Assembly (NCBI GenBank): GCA_963737365.1
Contig: CAVTSD010000008.1
Coordinates: forward strand, 23,504 to 87,503
Length of the DNA: 64,000 nt
DNA from: an uncultured Alphaproteobacteria bacterium
GTDB taxonomy: Bacteria; Pseudomonadota; Alphaproteobacteria; Rhizobiales; Beijerinckiaceae
Reading direction: 5' to 3'
The first letter of the stretch is position 1; every line of letters begins with the position of its first letter. The notes below the pieces were generated by a model. It was given only the letters and a program-made list of their open reading frames with translations. It had not been told where the DNA came from and ran no database searches. A program made the position numbers and the translations under genes. Below are positions 16,852 through 22,634 of the stretch, one piece after another.

Positions 16852-17193
16852 TTAGCAGGCTGTTGAAGAAGTATCCCGTTTCGCTTTGAGGACGGCTTCG
16901 TCGCCGTTTCGGTATGCGAACTCGATCTCGAGAGTGCCATCGTCGAGGAGTTCGGCGGTCCCTTCGCCCTCGACCTCGTCGCCTTCCTCGCAACCGGCCC
17001 AGCGAAAGCCAATCGAGTCCCGAGCATATTCGACCTCGAGGCCAGCCTCCAGAGCGCCGAAGGCGATTTCGTCGCCTTGCGCGGTGATCGTCAGCGCCGC
17101 CGGGCCGCAGAGATCGAGGTGAGCACCATCCCAGAGGTCGGCCTCGACGATCCGCCAGCGGCCGATCAGTCGGCAGTTCGCCGGGCTCTTCAC
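16852..17193 (-). CDS. IS passenger hypothetical protein (acidic, beta-rich, 113 aa)
   Basis: GGAGG SD and GTG start overlapping the transposase TGA (GTGA); GRWRIVEADLWD...; reads through the left IR. Confidence 0.75.
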   Translation of the reverse strand: MKSPANCRLIGRWRIVEADLWDGAHLDLCGPAALTITAQGDEIAFGALEAGLEVEYARDSIGFRWAGCEEGDEVEGEGTAELLDDGTLEIEFAYRNGDEAVLKAKRDTSSTAC

Positions 17194-18358
17194 GCGCAGG
17201 CCTCCAAGAGCTTCTGCAACCGCAACAGATTGTAGGCGGCGGCCGCGAAGGTAAAGGCCCAACCGACGCGATCGCGGCCGCGGAACTTGGCCTTCTCCTG
17301 CCCGCCAATCGTCTTCATCCAGCCGAAGGCTTCCTCGATCCGTTTGCGGATGCGTTGGCTGACTGCATAGCCTGCATGCCGCGTTGTGCGGCTGTCGATC
17401 GCCGACGAGCGGCCATTCGCATTCTGCGCCACGTGGGGCGTCGCGTTCATCGAGCGCAGTTCATTGACGAAGTCCTCGGCGTCGTAAGCTTTGTCGGCGC
17501 CGAGCGTGATCGGCCTCGGCCGATCGGCGCGCGGCTCGATCATGTGCAGCGCCGCGATCCGCTCGGCGTGGCCATTCGCCTCGGTCAAGCAGGCGTCGAC
17601 GACGAGGCCGTTGCGGTTCTCCATCAGCGCGTGGCCCATGAAGCAGAGCTTCGCCTCCTTGCCCGGCCCTTTGCGATAGAGACGCGCGTCCGGATCGGTC
17701 GTCGAAGCGTGCGTCGCGTTCGAGCGCTTCTGGCCGTGAAAATCCGCCTCGCGGTTCCTCCTGCCGCCTGCCGTCGGAGGATCGCCCGAGCCGTCCTTCG
17801 GCCGAAAACTCTTCATCGAAGCCCACGCCTCGATCAGCGTGCCGTCGACCGAGAAATGATCCGCGCTGAGCAGTCGGTTCACACGCGGCTGCGAAAGCAC
17901 CGCGCCCAAGAGCTTGGCTGCGATGTCGCCCTCCAGAAGGCGCTCGCGGTTCTTGGAAAACGTCGAGTGGTCCCACGCCGCATCGTCAACGCCGAGGCCG
18001 ACGAACCAGCGAAAAAGCAGGTCGAACTCCAGCCGATCCATCAACTGCCGTTCCGAGCGGATCGAATAGAACGCCTGCAACAGCATCGCCCGAAGGAGCT
18101 TCTCCGGTGGGATCGAGGGACGGCCGCTCCGCGAATAAAGCGCCGAGAACGCGCCTGAAAGGGTCGAAAGCGCCTCGTTCACAATCCCGCGGATGGCCCG
18201 CAGCGGATGGTCCTTGCCGACCCGCGCTTCAAGATCGACGTAACTGAACAGCGACCCCGACCGCTCGTCCCCGCCTCGCATCCACTCGCCTCCGCCTAAG
18301 CGCAAGACGACAGAATCACATCACAATTCCCCCGGCCAGAGACTTTTTCAACGGCCTG
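16856..18358 (-). mobile_element. IS5-family insertion sequence, 1503 bp, with passenger ORF
   Basis: 17-bp terminal IRs CAGGCTGTTGAAGAAGT (16856-16872) and ACTTTTTCAACGGCCTG (18342-18358), 15/17 complementary; flanked by a TTAG direct repeat (16852-16855, 18359-18362), matching the YTAR target of IS5. Confidence 0.93.
17190..18281 (-). CDS. IS5-family DDE transposase
   Basis: MRGGDERSGSLFSY, GRPSIPPEKLLRAMLLQAFYSIRSER, WDHSTFSKNR, SVDGTLIEA, GADKAYD, RKRIEEAFGW. Confidence 0.95.
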   Translation of the reverse strand: MRGGDERSGSLFSYVDLEARVGKDHPLRAIRGIVNEALSTLSGAFSALYSRSGRPSIPPEKLLRAMLLQAFYSIRSERQLMDRLEFDLLFRWFVGLGVDDAAWDHSTFSKNRERLLEGDIAAKLLGAVLSQPRVNRLLSADHFSVDGTLIEAWASMKSFRPKDGSGDPPTAGGRRNREADFHGQKRSNATHASTTDPDARLYRKGPGKEAKLCFMGHALMENRNGLVVDACLTEANGHAERIAALHMIEPRADRPRPITLGADKAYDAEDFVNELRSMNATPHVAQNANGRSSAIDSRTTRHAGYAVSQRIRKRIEEAFGWMKTIGGQEKAKFRGRDRVGWAFTFAAAAYNLLRLQKLLEACA

Positions 18359-19627
18359 TTAGTCCTCTGGCCGTTCTGCTCCTGAAACCGCAGACTCCTT
18401 GTTATGGAGTAAGGAACCCTCATTTGCCGACCGGTCTTTCGGAAGCTGGAGCCCGTCCGTATCGGCGAGCCTAAACCCCGCCACCAAGATCGCAGTCGGG
18501 AGCACGCGCTCAATTGCGTGAGGGAGATTCCCGTCGACCTGTCCACTTTCGTAAGGGATATCTGCAGCAAGACGCAAATCCGCCAGAGGTTTCAACGCCC
18601 GTGGGCGAACCCAAAACATGGTTCCTCCAAAGAAATCGAGTTGGAATTTGTCGGACGGCACACCCATCCTTTTGGCGATGTTCAAGGTCATGGAGCGATT
18701 GGCCAACCAAAATAGGTCCTCGGGATAACCAGCTTTAGGCAGTCGAAAAACACGCGAACCGATCATTCCGATAGACGGATCGCGCTCGAACATGTCGATG
18801 GCGGCGTTCGCAGCGCCCGGCGCGCCTAAAAGATCGAACAGCAGCCGCCGTCGCCACATGTCGCCTGTGTACATTTTTCGACCGCCGTCGATCGATTTTT
18901 TCCCGTGGATCTTGCAAATATAGCGGTAGCCATCGAGCCGACCTCGTTCAAGCAGCGTCAGGAACGGGCCAACATCGCGGCCGCGATTCGGCATAATCTC
19001 TATTTCGGCGGCAGGATAACTGCGCAGGATCGCTTCGACTAAATGTTCGCGACCCGCCACAGTGGTGACAATCAGATCGAAAGGAACCGTTAGGCCCCGC
19101 AGGGCCCCGGCAATGTCAGGCCAAGTGTCCTCGTAGTAGATGTGCGCAACGACCGCCACCGGCCCGACCGCGGGGTTCTCCGTTACTTGAGGCGGAGCCA
19201 CCCCTGCCGGCCACCCATAAAGAAGTTCCGGATACTTGGCGGCAAGGTCGCTGTCGGCCCTAAGCCCAATGTTTATCCAATCCTGGTTATACCGGGTGAA
19301 GCGTTTTCGTTCACTTTTCGGCCCAACACAGAAGAGCGAGAACTCATCGTATTTCAGGTACTTCTTTTTCCTGAAGAAAAGCGACAAACGTAGCCGCGCC
19401 CATAGCGACGGCAACGCCCCGAGCCTCTCAACGCAAAAGTCGCGGCTCTCGATCGGAAGCGCCCCGACCCCGCTAGCGGCCACGACATAGTCCAGATTCC
19501 GCGAATAGGGGACCAAAACGCTTTGGTTTCGGTCGCCGATTGTAACCAGCGAGAGCGCGTTTTCCTCTCGCTCAGCGACAGGCCTTAATCGGTAGGCGCG
19601 CGGCAACCGCAAACGAAACTGGCTCAT
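18359..19627 (-). CDS. Rhamnan synthesis protein F (RgpF)-like glycosyltransferase
   Basis: VVAHIYYEDTW, NRGRDVGPFL, CKIHGKKS, FFGGTMFWVR, HAIER are typical of RgpF-family domains. Confidence 0.85.
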   Translation of the reverse strand: MSQFRLRLPRAYRLRPVAEREENALSLVTIGDRNQSVLVPYSRNLDYVVAASGVGALPIESRDFCVERLGALPSLWARLRLSLFFRKKKYLKYDEFSLFCVGPKSERKRFTRYNQDWINIGLRADSDLAAKYPELLYGWPAGVAPPQVTENPAVGPVAVVAHIYYEDTWPDIAGALRGLTVPFDLIVTTVAGREHLVEAILRSYPAAEIEIMPNRGRDVGPFLTLLERGRLDGYRYICKIHGKKSIDGGRKMYTGDMWRRRLLFDLLGAPGAANAAIDMFERDPSIGMIGSRVFRLPKAGYPEDLFWLANRSMTLNIAKRMGVPSDKFQLDFFGGTMFWVRPRALKPLADLRLAADIPYESGQVDGNLPHAIERVLPTAILVAGFRLADTDGLQLPKDRSANEGSLLHNKESAVSGAERPED

Positions 19628-19713: not shown

Positions 19714-21198
19714 TCAGCCGTTCGCACCCAATCGCAACGACCGGCTTTCATCCGCCTGTGGGCCGTCATGAGCGAGGACAGCTGCTTGCCTAAGGTCGTT
19801 GGCGAAGGCCCGGGTCTCCGCCGCCTTCGCAGTCGGGTCTGGCAGCCGAAGCAAATAGGCGGGATGGATTGTTGGCAGCAATATGCGGTCGCCGAAAGCG
19901 ACTGAGCGTCCCCGCATCTGTGCTAGCCGCACCGATGGTCCCGCCACAGCGCATAGCGCGCTCGCGCCGAGCGTGACGACGAGCGGCGAACTGACCAAAG
20001 CGAGTTCACGGTCCAGCCACCAGCGGCAGTGATCGATTTCGCGCGCGCTAGGAGTTTTATGGATACGCCGCTTTCCACGCGGAACGAATTTGAAATGCTT
20101 GACCGCATTCGTAAGGTAGCACTCGGCTTCTGAGAAGCCCGCTTCGCGGAGCGCCGAGCGCAGCAGCAGGCCAGCCGGCCCGACAAAGGGATGGCCTTGA
20201 AGATCCTCTTGATCCCCAGGCTGCTCGCCGACGAAAATCGCGCGCGCCTGCATTGGACCATCACCGAACACGATTTGCGTCGCACAATCGCCAAGGGGAC
20301 AGCGGCGACAAGTTTTCGCCTCGCTCCTAAGCGCCTCGTGGGCGTCCGCGGGCATCGCTAACTTTGTGGCCTCGGCGAAGCGAGCGGCGACCCTAGCGGC
20401 CCCAGGGTCCACCCTTGACGGCGGCGCAGCGACCATCTGCGCTTCGCGAGATCGAGCTGCCGACGACATCGTTGGGATCGAACGTGTTTCCGGCAGATTG
20501 ACCCAATATTTCTTTGGCATCTCCTTCAGCATGGCCCGCTCCATAAGCCGAGCGGGATTGAAGATAGCACGGTAATAGACGTCCCAGGCTCCAGCGAAAT
20601 CATCGAGCGGCGGCGCGTCCTCTCGATGGGCGCCTGGACCGAAGCGCAACTTTCCGTCCCAAAGGATTGAGGTCCGCGGCGTCAAGATCGCAAAATTCAT
20701 GGACGCGAACCGGTCGATGAAGAAAGTCGCCGTCAGCTCTTCGATGTAATGCTCAGGTTCGAACCAGGCGACGAAGCGCGCCCCGTCCGACGTCTCGATC
20801 TCGCGAAAGCGCACGAAGGCAGTCATCTTGTGACGATCGCGGCGCACAGCGCGCTCCATGTTCTCAAGCCGACGAACGAGCGGATCGCTGGCGATCTCCA
20901 GAAGGCGCGGCGTTTCTCGAAGTCGGAGGAGGGCTGCGTAAAGCAGGTCATAGCGGGTTGGTTCTTTGTGGCGGCAAACCAGATCGGCCAGCCCAAGAAA
21001 ACGGGAAGGCACGCGCACACGCGAGCTGGTCGGCGAGAGGTCTTGCGTTTCCTTCTCGGTGAAAAGGTCGCTCTCTCCCTCCGCGCTGTGAGACTCAAAA
21101 CGGATTGCGTCGGCGCCCAGGCCTCTCGCGACCGCCGCACGCGCTTCGCGGCGAAAACCTTCAAAATCGATCTCGCTCTCCAGGTGAACGATCTTCAC
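19714..21198 (-). CDS. DUF4130 (TIGR03915-type) domain fused to UdgX-type uracil-DNA glycosylase
   Basis: N-half: RDRHKMTAFVRFR, WFEPEHYI, WDVYYRAIFNPAR, MPKKYWVNLPE. C-half: CRRC...C, VGEQPGDQED, NAVKHFKF, KRRIHKTP (UdgX signature), HPAYLLR. GTG start inferred. Confidence 0.9.
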   Translation of the reverse strand: MKIVHLESEIDFEGFRREARAAVARGLGADAIRFESHSAEGESDLFTEKETQDLSPTSSRVRVPSRFLGLADLVCRHKEPTRYDLLYAALLRLRETPRLLEIASDPLVRRLENMERAVRRDRHKMTAFVRFREIETSDGARFVAWFEPEHYIEELTATFFIDRFASMNFAILTPRTSILWDGKLRFGPGAHREDAPPLDDFAGAWDVYYRAIFNPARLMERAMLKEMPKKYWVNLPETRSIPTMSSAARSREAQMVAAPPSRVDPGAARVAARFAEATKLAMPADAHEALRSEAKTCRRCPLGDCATQIVFGDGPMQARAIFVGEQPGDQEDLQGHPFVGPAGLLLRSALREAGFSEAECYLTNAVKHFKFVPRGKRRIHKTPSAREIDHCRWWLDRELALVSSPLVVTLGASALCAVAGPSVRLAQMRGRSVAFGDRILLPTIHPAYLLRLPDPTAKAAETRAFANDLRQAAVLAHDGPQADESRSLRLGANG

Positions 21199-21212
21199 GG
21201 GCCCTGCCCCGC

Positions 21213-22463
21213 TCACGCGAAAAGATCGAGCTGGCGCGGGCCGGGACGCGCAAGCCTGCCTGCAAGGGTAGCGGAATCGAGGAGGCCAGTCGGGCGCCAA
21301 TCGGGCGTGACGACAAAAGGGCGGACCGCGTCAAGGGAGCGGATGAGACGAGCGAGATCATCGATCCGCAGCGTGACATGCCGTCGCGCAGTCAGGATCC
21401 GCTTGACGACACGAGCCCCTATGCCGGGGACACGAAGAAGCGTCTCGCGCGGAGCTCGGTTGACGTCGATTGGAAAGAGAGCCCGGTTGCGCAGAGCCCA
21501 GGCGAGCTTGGGGTCGCGCTCGAGATCGAGCATGCCGTCGCTCCCTTCGTCGAGAATTTCCTCCGCCGCAAAGCCATAGTACCGCATTAGCCAATCGGCT
21601 TGATAGAGTCGGTGCTCACGCATCAGCGGAGGGCGGCGCAGCGGCAGGCTTTGCGAAGCATGCGGGATCGGGCTGAAGGCGGAATAGTAGACGCGCCGCA
21701 GGCCGTATGACGCATAGAGCGAGGCCGAGCGCGCAATGATGTCGCGATCCTTCGCCTCGTCTGCGCCAACAATCATTTGCGTACACTGGCCCGCGGGAGC
21801 GAACCGCGGAGAGCGCAGCGTTTTCCGCTTTTCTTCCTTCGCTTTGTCGAGTCGAAGCCGAAGGCCGCCCATCGCCTTGCGGATGACAAGCGCGTCCTTC
21901 TGCGGGGCGAGCCGAGTCAGCGATTCATCAACCGGCAGTTCGACATTGACCGAAAGCCTGTCCGCCGCGCGGCCGGCGCGCTCCATCAGATCCTGCGACG
22001 CTCCGGCGATCGCCTTGAGATGAATATAGCCCCTGAAGTCGTGGTCACGCCGCAGCGTCTCGGCAACGCGGACCATCTCCTCCATCGTATGGTCTTCTGA
22101 TTTCGCGATTCCAGATGAGAGGAACAATCCCTCGATCATGTTGCGGCGATAGAAGCCAAGCGTGAGGGCGACGATTTCCTCGACTTTAAAACGGGCGCGC
22201 GGCGTGTCGCTGGACAAGCGATTGACGCAAAAAGCGCAATCATAGACGCAGAAATTCGTGAGAAGGACTTTAAGGAGCGAAACACATCGTCCGTCCGGCG
22301 TGTACGCATGGCAGATGCCCGATCCAGTCGTCGATCCGAGCCCCTTACCGTCCCGCGAGTTTCGGCCGCTCGCCCCCGAGGACGCGCAGGAAGCGTCGTA
22401 TTTCGCGGCGTCTGCGAGGATAGCGAGCTTGCGGTGAAGGCTGGGCTCGATTTGTATGTTCAT
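21213..22463 (-). CDS. Putative DNA modification/repair radical SAM protein with C-terminal helix-hairpin-helix (TIGR03916 type)
   Basis: KLAILADAAKYDASCASSG, GICHAYTPDGRCVSLLKVLLTNFCVYDCAFC (CxxxCxxC), REHRLYQADWL, LLRVPGIG. Confidence 0.93.
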   Translation of the reverse strand: MNIQIEPSLHRKLAILADAAKYDASCASSGASGRNSRDGKGLGSTTGSGICHAYTPDGRCVSLLKVLLTNFCVYDCAFCVNRLSSDTPRARFKVEEIVALTLGFYRRNMIEGLFLSSGIAKSEDHTMEEMVRVAETLRRDHDFRGYIHLKAIAGASQDLMERAGRAADRLSVNVELPVDESLTRLAPQKDALVIRKAMGGLRLRLDKAKEEKRKTLRSPRFAPAGQCTQMIVGADEAKDRDIIARSASLYASYGLRRVYYSAFSPIPHASQSLPLRRPPLMREHRLYQADWLMRYYGFAAEEILDEGSDGMLDLERDPKLAWALRNRALFPIDVNRAPRETLLRVPGIGARVVKRILTARRHVTLRIDDLARLIRSLDAVRPFVVTPDWRPTGLLDSATLAGRLARPGPRQLDLFA

Positions 22464-22472
22464 TATTTGTTC
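22458..22472. promoter_or_regulatory. Alphaproteobacterial LexA (SOS) box
   Basis: GTTC-ATTATTT-GTTC (coding strand GAAC-AAATAAT-GAAC), exact GTTC-N7-GTTC, overlapping the radical SAM ATG; TATGAT lies just upstream. Confidence 0.85.
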
Positions 22473-22634
22473 CTATCATAGCTTTTGCAACCCGCCAAGA
22501 TGGGTTGCGCCGGAAAGGCACACTGTCGTCCAAGAGGACGGGTTTGGCTCGCCTGCGCGTGATCCCAGGAACCGAAAAAAGGTTGGGCGTCGAGGCCTGG
22601 GCGGCGATAGAGAGAGCGCAGAGGGGACCCCAGC

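Follow-up and report, generated by a model that had tools for sequence, protein, structure and literature searches.

A LexA-boxed operon encoding a radical SAM protein and a DUF4130-UdgX fusion in an alphaproteobacterial genome

Within a 64,000-nucleotide stretch of DNA from an uncultured alphaproteobacterium of the family Beijerinckiaceae (GenBank assembly GCA_963737365.1, contig CAVTSD010000008.1, positions 23,504 to 87,503; here called the window), we examined the minus-strand locus from 22463 to 19714, which encodes a radical S-adenosylmethionine (SAM) protein and a fusion of a DUF4130 domain to a UdgX-type uracil-DNA glycosylase (UDG). The reading we favor, at a rough probability of 0.5, is that this is an ordinary LexA-repressed radical SAM/DUF4130/UdgX operon, whose products would form an SOS-induced, clamp-docked complex that acts at stalled forks, on uracil or abasic sites of single-stranded DNA. 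The parts of this reading differ in strength: the identity of the operon and its SOS control are predicted from sequence with high confidence, clamp-docked action at forks has about an even chance of being correct, and a radical step aimed at a UdgX-capped or abasic site is a tentative proposal. The family, the linkage of the three modules, and the SOS control are already known, from NCBIfam and COG and from SOS literature on Caulobacter, Verrucomicrobia, and Bacteroidetes. Because all of these have been catalogued, we regard the locus as ordinary; its interest rests on the chemistry of the radical step and on nothing peculiar to this locus. An earlier annotation of the DNA made from the letters alone (the sequence-only reading) fared well in its identification of the operon and its set of modules. 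Its description of a poorly described system overstated the novelty, as NCBIfam names all three modules and the LexA control has been published (PMC8565304); its proposal that the radical SAM enzyme resolves UdgX crosslinks is weakened, and its anti-phage idea is unsupported, as set out below.

Identity and organization of the two genes

Two consecutive minus-strand open reading frames (ORFs) lie exactly at 19714-22463, where the sequence-only reading had placed a two-gene operon. The genes and their domains are as follows.

21213-22463, minus strand: gene 1, radical SAM/helix-hairpin-helix (HhH) protein of 416 amino acids, start codon ATG at 22463-22461, matching TIGR03916
22227-22250, minus strand: CX3CX2C radical-SAM [4Fe-4S] motif CVYDCAFC (C72/C76/C79), from the sequence
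21342-21485, minus strand: HhH DNA-binding region, residues ~327-374, containing LLRVPGIG, from HHH_3 and a ComEA-related PDB match
19714-21198, minus strand: gene 2, DUF4130-UdgX fusion of 494 amino acids counted from GTG 21198
20485-21174, minus strand: DUF4130/TIGR03915 domain, residues 9-238, from a hidden Markov model (HMM) match; predicted partner of the radical SAM protein
19786-20478, minus strand: UdgX-type family-4-like UDG domain, residues 241-471, from TIGR03914 and PDB alignment

The gene 1 product matched TIGR03916 over its full length (E = 1.7e-162; 541.2 bits, cut-off 343.5). Residues 9-238 of the gene 2 product matched TIGR03915 (179.5 bits, cut-off 112.25) and DUF4130, PF13566 (122.5 bits, cut-off 27), and residues 241-471 matched TIGR03914, "UdgX family uracil-DNA binding protein" (274.6 bits, cut-off 189.95); the generic family-4 UDG model TIGR00758 gave 110 bits, below its cut-off of 125.3. 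Because all three HMMs (TIGR03914, TIGR03915, and TIGR03916, the models that the sequence-only reading had proposed to search) pass their curated cut-offs, a chance match is excluded for both genes. That reading's description of a radical SAM protein with CVYDCAFC and a C-terminal HhH motif, followed by a DUF4130-UdgX fusion with Fe-S cysteines and KRRIH, is borne out by these scores, by alignment of the UdgX domain to solved structures, and by a match of the HhH region to ComEA-like HhH in the PDB. C72, C76, and C79 are at least 90% conserved over the radical SAM family; the Pfam Radical_SAM match in the gene 1 product falls under the Pfam cut-off. The HHH_3 match (residues 332-361; E = 7.7e-4; 19.9 bits) is likewise below its Pfam cut-off of 27 here and above it in relatives. 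The HhH residues P346, G347, and G349 are invariant or nearly so, the PGIG hairpin being kept in the family, and the region was modeled by AlphaFold 2 (AF2) with a predicted local distance difference test (pLDDT) score above 90.

The intergenic gap is 14 nucleotides (nt), as earlier claimed, if gene 2 begins at GTG 21198. A second candidate start, the in-frame GTG at 21216, shares the sequence GTGA with the gene 1 stop codon, and a 4-nt overlap of this kind is the usual gene 1/gene 2 junction among orthologs; because this junction predominates there, gene 2 may start at either GTG 21198 or GTG 21216. The two genes are tightly or translationally coupled.

A LexA box at the start of the operon

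Two features lie at the upstream end of gene 1.

22458-22472, minus strand: LexA (SOS) box GAACAAATAATGAAC, of the alphaproteobacterial GAAC-N7-GAAC type, overlapping the ATG of the radical SAM gene
22462-22490, minus strand: sigma-70-like promoter match TTGCAA-17-AATAAT, a consensus match only and the sole such match in the region

The bare count of GAAC-N7-GAAC in the window was not significant (3 found, 2.3 expected), so support was sought from the position and conservation of the box instead. A scan of the whole 5.29-Mb genome with the same pattern gave 161 matches, 28 of which had an A/T-rich spacer. Such A/T-rich-spacer boxes precede uvrA, dnaE2, parE, comM/yifB, rmuC, and a PA0069-family radical SAM gene; the lexA box has a GC-richer spacer, and the recA box has one mismatch. 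The boxed genes of this genome are the expected alphaproteobacterial SOS set.

Conservation of the box was examined in two samples. The radical SAM gene is present in 28 of 151 genomes of the same order, and a perfect LexA box lies within 100 nt of its start in 25 of these 28 loci, with a single-mismatch box in one more. The second sample comprised 80 named genomes (Brevundimonas, Caulobacter, Bosea, Methylocystis, Sphingomonadales, Rhodobacterales, Acetobacteraceae, and others); here, a perfect box was found between -200 and +40 at 75 of 80 loci. Within these loci the background was 0.009 per 240 nt, and 0/80 control windows held a box. The ortholog at one betaproteobacterial locus carries CTGTATATTTGAACAG, a CTGT-N8-ACAG box typical of its own class. 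LexA is predicted to bind GAACAAATAATGAAC over the -10/start-codon region, and the operon would therefore be induced along with the SOS regulon.

This agrees with earlier work on the operon. Sánchez-Osuna et al. state that a COG1573-COG4277 "UDG base excision" operon was reported to be SOS regulated in Alphaproteobacteria (by da Rocha 2008, for C. crescentus) and in Verrucomicrobia, and they add Bacteroidetes (PMC8565304). The DdaA DNA-damage regulon of Acinetobacter includes both the radical SAM gene and the TIGR03915 gene (PMC12392091).

Two further observations concern the boxes. One Rhodospirillales ortholog (L092, upstream of 2013) has no GAAC-N7-GAAC; the palindrome AGAACAAACGTTCT (GAAC-N4-GTTC) stands right before its start and may be a different LexA motif. 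The PA0069-family gene (Rv2578c-related, COG1533 "SplB-like" group) is a second radical SAM gene of this genome, on contig C1 near 505072, outside the window. The A/T-spacer LexA-type box GAACAAATCATGAAC adjoins it and is read on the opposite strand to the gene; judging from these boxes, two radical SAM enzymes of this genome appear to be linked to the SOS response.

The radical SAM protein and DUF4130 form the core; UdgX is an accessory

Among the 151 order-level genomes, TIGR03916 and TIGR03915 scored above cut-off in exactly the same 28, and the UdgX domain is present in all 28; the co-occurrence that the sequence-only reading had asked about is therefore complete. The radical SAM gene lies directly upstream of the fusion gene in 26 of the 28, and in one genus both genes are present, unlinked. 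A Caulobacter control genome was positive for all three families. In a search of 1.8 billion cluster representatives (E ≤ 1e-30), which returned 867 clusters, we found single-chain radical SAM-HhH-DUF4130 proteins of 666-729 amino acids (P0123, P0126, and P0127), a Rosetta-stone fusion of both partners. These agree with the heterodimer, with a narrow nucleic-acid channel, predicted by AlphaFold 3 (AF3) for the homologous pair of Lachnospiraceae bacterium 3-1 (bioRxiv 10.64898/2026.08.19.745780).

UdgX is distributed differently: it scored above cut-off in 36 order-level genomes, of which 28 have the radical SAM/DUF4130 pair and 8 have short solo UdgX genes. Because the co-occurrence of the radical SAM protein and DUF4130 is perfect while the distribution of UdgX differs, we call the former two the core, and SOS control belongs to this core. 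We conclude that the radical SAM enzyme has DUF4130 as its obligate partner and that UdgX is an accessory, fused on in the alphaproteobacterial lineage. In one genome (locus L029, G102:C1:4966150-4966266), a 39-residue radical SAM remnant with an internal TAG accompanies a solo UdgX only; the core appears to have decayed there.

Predicted uracil-excision and covalent-capture residues of the UdgX domain

The UdgX domain aligns along its whole length to Mycobacterium smegmatis UdgX (MsmUdgX) structures (PDB 6ajo/6ail; E = 9e-43), and three motifs were located from the alignment.

20215-20229, minus strand: UdgX motif A, GEQPG, residues 324-328, aligned with GEQPG of 6ajo, the E52/Q53 pair of MsmUdgX
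20059-20073, minus strand: UdgX R-loop, KRRIH, residues 376-380; H380 corresponds to H109, the crosslinking residue of MsmUdgX, and R107 is also matched
19846-19866, minus strand: UdgX motif B, HPAYLLR, residues 445-451, from alignment to UdgX structures

GEQPG is invariant among the 26 order-level fusions listed, and the R and H of the R-loop (Gxx-R-[ILM]-H) are retained in 98 of 98 fused UdgX domains. Motif B differs from the HPS(S/A)(L/V)(L/V)R of MsmUdgX in having A-Y in place of S-S/A; its H, P, LL, and R are retained. HPSYLLR occurs in most alphaproteobacterial fusions, and HP[SA]xx[LIVM]R variants occur in 95 of 98. The Fe-S ligands, CRRC (CxxC) and a third Cys, align to those of the solved structures. 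As judged from these alignments, the domain appears to have kept all residues known to be required for excising uracil and for trapping the abasic sugar covalently, and both activities are predicted. The CxxC pair is missing from about 10 of the 98 fused domains (L013, L014, L017, L020-L022, L024, L077, L089, and L093), including one from a same-family relative of this genome; the third Fe-S Cys is replaced by Tyr in 8, and GEQPG and the R-loop His are kept. In sequence, these fusions look like a cluster-free UdgX subgroup.

A clamp-type tail and linkage to translesion genes

The radical SAM protein ends in …RQLDLFA.

21219-21233, minus strand: QLDLF, a pentapeptide of the beta-sliding-clamp-binding type, residues 411-415 of 416, from the sequence

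A QLxLF-type pentapeptide is the consensus form of the beta-clamp-binding peptide. We found Q[LIVM]x[LIVM][FLMY] in the last 14 amino acids of 93 of 108 orthologs, compared with 12 of 7863 long ORFs of this genome; the strict form QLxLF occurs in 62 of the 108, mostly at the extreme C terminus.

In 10 of the 80 named loci, mostly from Sphingomonadales, dnaE2 lies downstream of the pair on the same strand, and imuA-imuB precede dnaE2 in nearly all of them. The Henriciella mutasome operon and the radical SAM/fusion pair point away from each other, with LexA boxes between. Altogether, about 11 of the 80 loci have the pair within imuA-imuB-dnaE2 or divergent from it. The operon described here is unlinked to imuA-imuB-dnaE2; dnaE2 is on another contig and has its own LexA box. 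Elsewhere, in Fulvimarina and Jiella, a cytidine/dCMP-deaminase-family gene (which also gives a MafB19-like deaminase match) immediately precedes the DUF4130-UdgX gene and has its orientation (L044, 5850-6488, plus strand; L069, 5857-6564, plus strand), beside an inserted HigB/HigA pair. The placement of a uracil-making deaminase beside a uracil-trapping UdgX may be a coincidence of insertion.

A proposed mechanism and the points that weigh against it

Cytosine deaminates rapidly where single strands are exposed and within UV dimers. Once DNA is damaged, the heterodimer of the radical SAM protein and DUF4130 would bind the beta clamp where forks have stalled or gaps remain, next to the translesion proteins ImuA-ImuB-DnaE2; there the tethered UdgX domain would excise uracil and cap the abasic site covalently through H380, preventing strand breakage. 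The radical SAM enzyme, via a 5'-deoxyadenosyl radical, would then act on single-stranded DNA, either on the sugar that is captured or abasic or on a lesion next to it, allowing the gap to be filled. We reasoned that the radical SAM enzyme and UdgX should share one site, because DUF4130, the enzyme's obligate partner, carries a fused suicide domain that crosslinks to DNA.

Several observations weigh against this proposal. Its main weakness is that the core is found elsewhere without UdgX: a Bacteroides thetaiotaomicron control genome has the radical SAM and DUF4130 genes and no family-4-like UDG, and the DUF4130 protein of the Lachnospiraceae pair has no UdgX domain (bioRxiv 10.64898/2026.08.19.745780). 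Since the core occurs without UdgX in other phyla, UdgX is not its sole source of substrate. No LexA box was found at any of 10 solo UdgX genes examined. The clamp motif is a sequence match and is less regular in distant family members, and the modeled radical SAM fold does not reveal the chemistry. Finally, the -10 hexamer of the predicted promoter falls within the LexA box, so the implied transcription start would lie at or past the annotated ATG at 22463. The radical SAM gene has no later in-frame start codon ahead of its conserved KLxIL motif. The box of many orthologs is placed at -17 and stops 2 nt short of the ATG, a layout that looks like that of a leaderless mRNA.

A more specific version of the mechanism would make the radical SAM-DUF4130 core a clamp-recruited, 5'-deoxyadenosyl-radical-dependent remover of covalent adducts at abasic sugars in single-stranded DNA, including its own UdgX His-C1' link. 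We consider this unlikely, and the earlier suggestion that resolving UdgX crosslinks is what the radical SAM enzyme is for has lost ground: there are cores without UdgX and solo UdgX genes without the core, and SOS control follows the core. Were adduct reversal nevertheless correct, UdgX would be a recyclable abasic-site shield at stalled forks, and the reaction would be the first enzymatic, nonproteolytic reversal of a DNA-protein crosslink by radical chemistry.

Alternative explanations

Every alternative that we weighed ranks below the clamp-docked UdgX/radical SAM complex. The strongest, to which we give a clear minority chance, is that two independent activities are merely coexpressed: a direct reversal, by radical chemistry of the radical SAM-DUF4130 pair, of a UV- or oxidation-type pyrimidine lesion, like that of spore photoproduct lyase (SPL), after which UdgX would remove uracils arising from deaminated lesion cytosines. 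Separable activities would be expected to occur apart, as the core and UdgX both do, and SOS control tracks the core. Aravind and colleagues place the enzyme with SplB-like photolyases (PMC3765255), and the COG1533-type PA0069-family gene of this genome, which adjoins a LexA-type box, belongs to a group called SplB in the SOS literature (PMC8565304). SplB-like enzymes (COG1533, PA0069 family) are likewise radical SAM proteins that act on DNA and are SOS regulated in many bacteria; they differ from the gene 1 product in having neither a DUF4130 partner nor an HhH tail. Membership of the gene 1 product in the SPL/COG1533 group was considered and rejected: there was no NCBIfam match and no PDB sequence match to that group, the HhH match aside the protein matched no solved structure by sequence, and SPL was missing from the top 50 Foldseek matches of its model. 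Moreover, a suicide UdgX that anchors a turnover lyase to DNA would be counterproductive unless both act at the same site, and the genome already holds a separate SplB-like enzyme.

It is less probable still that the enzyme modifies DNA, methylating, thiolating, or otherwise altering a base near the fork, and works with ImuA-ImuB-DnaE2 to raise damage-induced mutagenesis rather than repair. The pair is embedded in an imuA-imuB-dnaE2 cassette in Sphingomonadales, the nearest folds include methylthiotransferases and radical methylases, and Aravind's note labels DUF4130 "mutagenesis-related" (PMC3765255). The structural likeness is generic, however (template modeling [TM] score ≤0.42), and the N-terminal Cys triad that might hold an auxiliary cluster is not family-wide; the deaminase gene just ahead of the fusion gene, which would also fit, is limited to two related Aurantimonadaceae loci, beside inserted toxin-antitoxin genes.

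There is little to recommend the idea that the radical SAM-DUF4130 pair modifies tRNA or rRNA in the manner of RlmN, Cfr, or MiaB, with only UdgX touching DNA. The preprint on the Lachnospiraceae pair leaves the type of nucleic acid open and likens the complex to MiaB (bioRxiv 10.64898/2026.08.19.745780), and the best structural matches here include MiaB and RimO, but LexA control in several phyla, the fusion to a DNA glycosylase, the clamp-type motif, and the linkage to translesion polymerases point to DNA. Least probable of all is the suggestion, made in the sequence-only reading, of a defense that traps uracil-containing phage DNA: UdgX would crosslink to such DNA and the distribution is patchy (28/151 genomes of the order), but PADLOC matched 0 families for both proteins, homologs occur in only 10 of 50,697 phage records (mostly unannotated fecal fragments), plasmid matches are mostly to large nonmobilizable replicons, the context that is conserved consists of SOS-regulon and translesion genes rather than defense islands, and the local flanks are a sulfatase, RgpF, and an IS5 element.

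Relation to known systems

The LexA-regulated COG4277-COG1573 operon (e.g., near Caulobacter crescentus CC2333) matches the present one in its three modules and their order, in tight coupling, and in a class-typical LexA box in the promoter. Nothing essential sets the present locus apart from it; here the box overlaps the ATG, imuA-imuB-dnaE2 are unlinked, and an RgpF-like gene and an IS5 element lie downstream.

MsmUdgX (6ajo, 6ail, and 8iie) shares with gene 2 the family-4-like fold, GEQPG, KRRIH with its crosslinking His, the H, P, and R of motif B, and the Fe-S cysteines. It has been studied as a stand-alone protein of 209 amino acids, whereas here the domain is fused behind DUF4130 and is predicted to be coexpressed with the radical SAM protein under LexA. 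Adducts of MsmUdgX are resolved through RecA-dependent routes (PMC4787834), and what UdgX does physiologically is acknowledged to be an open question (PMC10359453). The open-access UdgX literature that we searched does not mention a radical SAM partner, and we found no biochemical data on any TIGR03916-family member in the literature searched.

The Lachnospiraceae bacterium 3-1 pair comprises adjacent genes of the same radical SAM (CX3CX2C and HhH) and DUF4130 families (bioRxiv 10.64898/2026.08.19.745780). It differs in having no UdgX domain, and an SOS link and a clamp motif are not discussed in the preprint. The abasic-site shields SRAP/HMCES/YedK resemble UdgX in working principle only, namely a covalent crosslink to abasic sites in single-stranded DNA; these shields have been linked to the SOS response and translesion genes by comparative genomics (PMC3765255). 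Their fold and chemistry are unrelated, a Cys thiazolidine as opposed to the His-C1' link of UdgX, and no homology was found.

In much of the Alphaproteobacteria, UdgX forms one chain with a radical SAM enzyme's partner. The LexA control that tracks the core, the clamp-type tail, and the ImuA-ImuB-DnaE2 linkage can be followed up experimentally in tractable bacteria such as Caulobacter; none of these comparative facts is specific to this window.

Structure models and a possible auxiliary metal site

The AF2 model of the radical SAM protein (pLDDT 77.5) is a generic radical-SAM barrel, and the top structural matches identified by Foldseek were HydE, MiaB, RimO, BioB, LipA, and viperin, with TM scores of 0.3-0.42. 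The DUF4130 model (pLDDT 89) has conserved residues that are aromatic and basic, not metal binding. Foldseek gave no significant PDB neighbor for it (best E = 0.035); the weak top matches are to the DHH family, the same resemblance as reported for the Lachnospiraceae DUF4130 (bioRxiv 10.64898/2026.08.19.745780). We rejected a DHH-type phosphoesterase assignment, as these matches are insignificant and the DHH metal motifs are not conserved.

Near the N terminus of the radical SAM protein (residues 26-60; window 22284-22388, minus strand), C26, C51, and C60, together with H52, are invariant in 28 close homologs. The three cysteines are present in many, but not all, distant family members, and the region was modeled at low confidence. 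A family-wide auxiliary Fe-S cluster was rejected, since the triad is not conserved in a diverse family sample and is therefore not a family-wide catalytic feature; the conserved cysteines suggest that the region may be an auxiliary metal site in a subfamily.

Neighboring genes

An RgpF-like (rhamnan synthesis) gene and then an IS5-type transposase (DUF772 and DDE_Tnp_1) lie downstream of the operon (window 17190-19627, minus strand). The RgpF-like gene begins 86 nt past the operon stop with no terminator-like site in between, and neither gene is conserved beside the operon in other genomes. A search among the neighbors for a third conserved operon gene found none present throughout; it turned up the imuA/imuB/dnaE2 linkage, which is limited to certain lineages, and a small number of insertions. 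In a Sphingomonas metagenome-assembled genome (MAG) (L070, 5252-5728, plus strand) and a Pseudomonadota MAG (L105, 5253-5741, plus strand), a hemerythrin-domain gene is inserted between the radical SAM and fusion genes.

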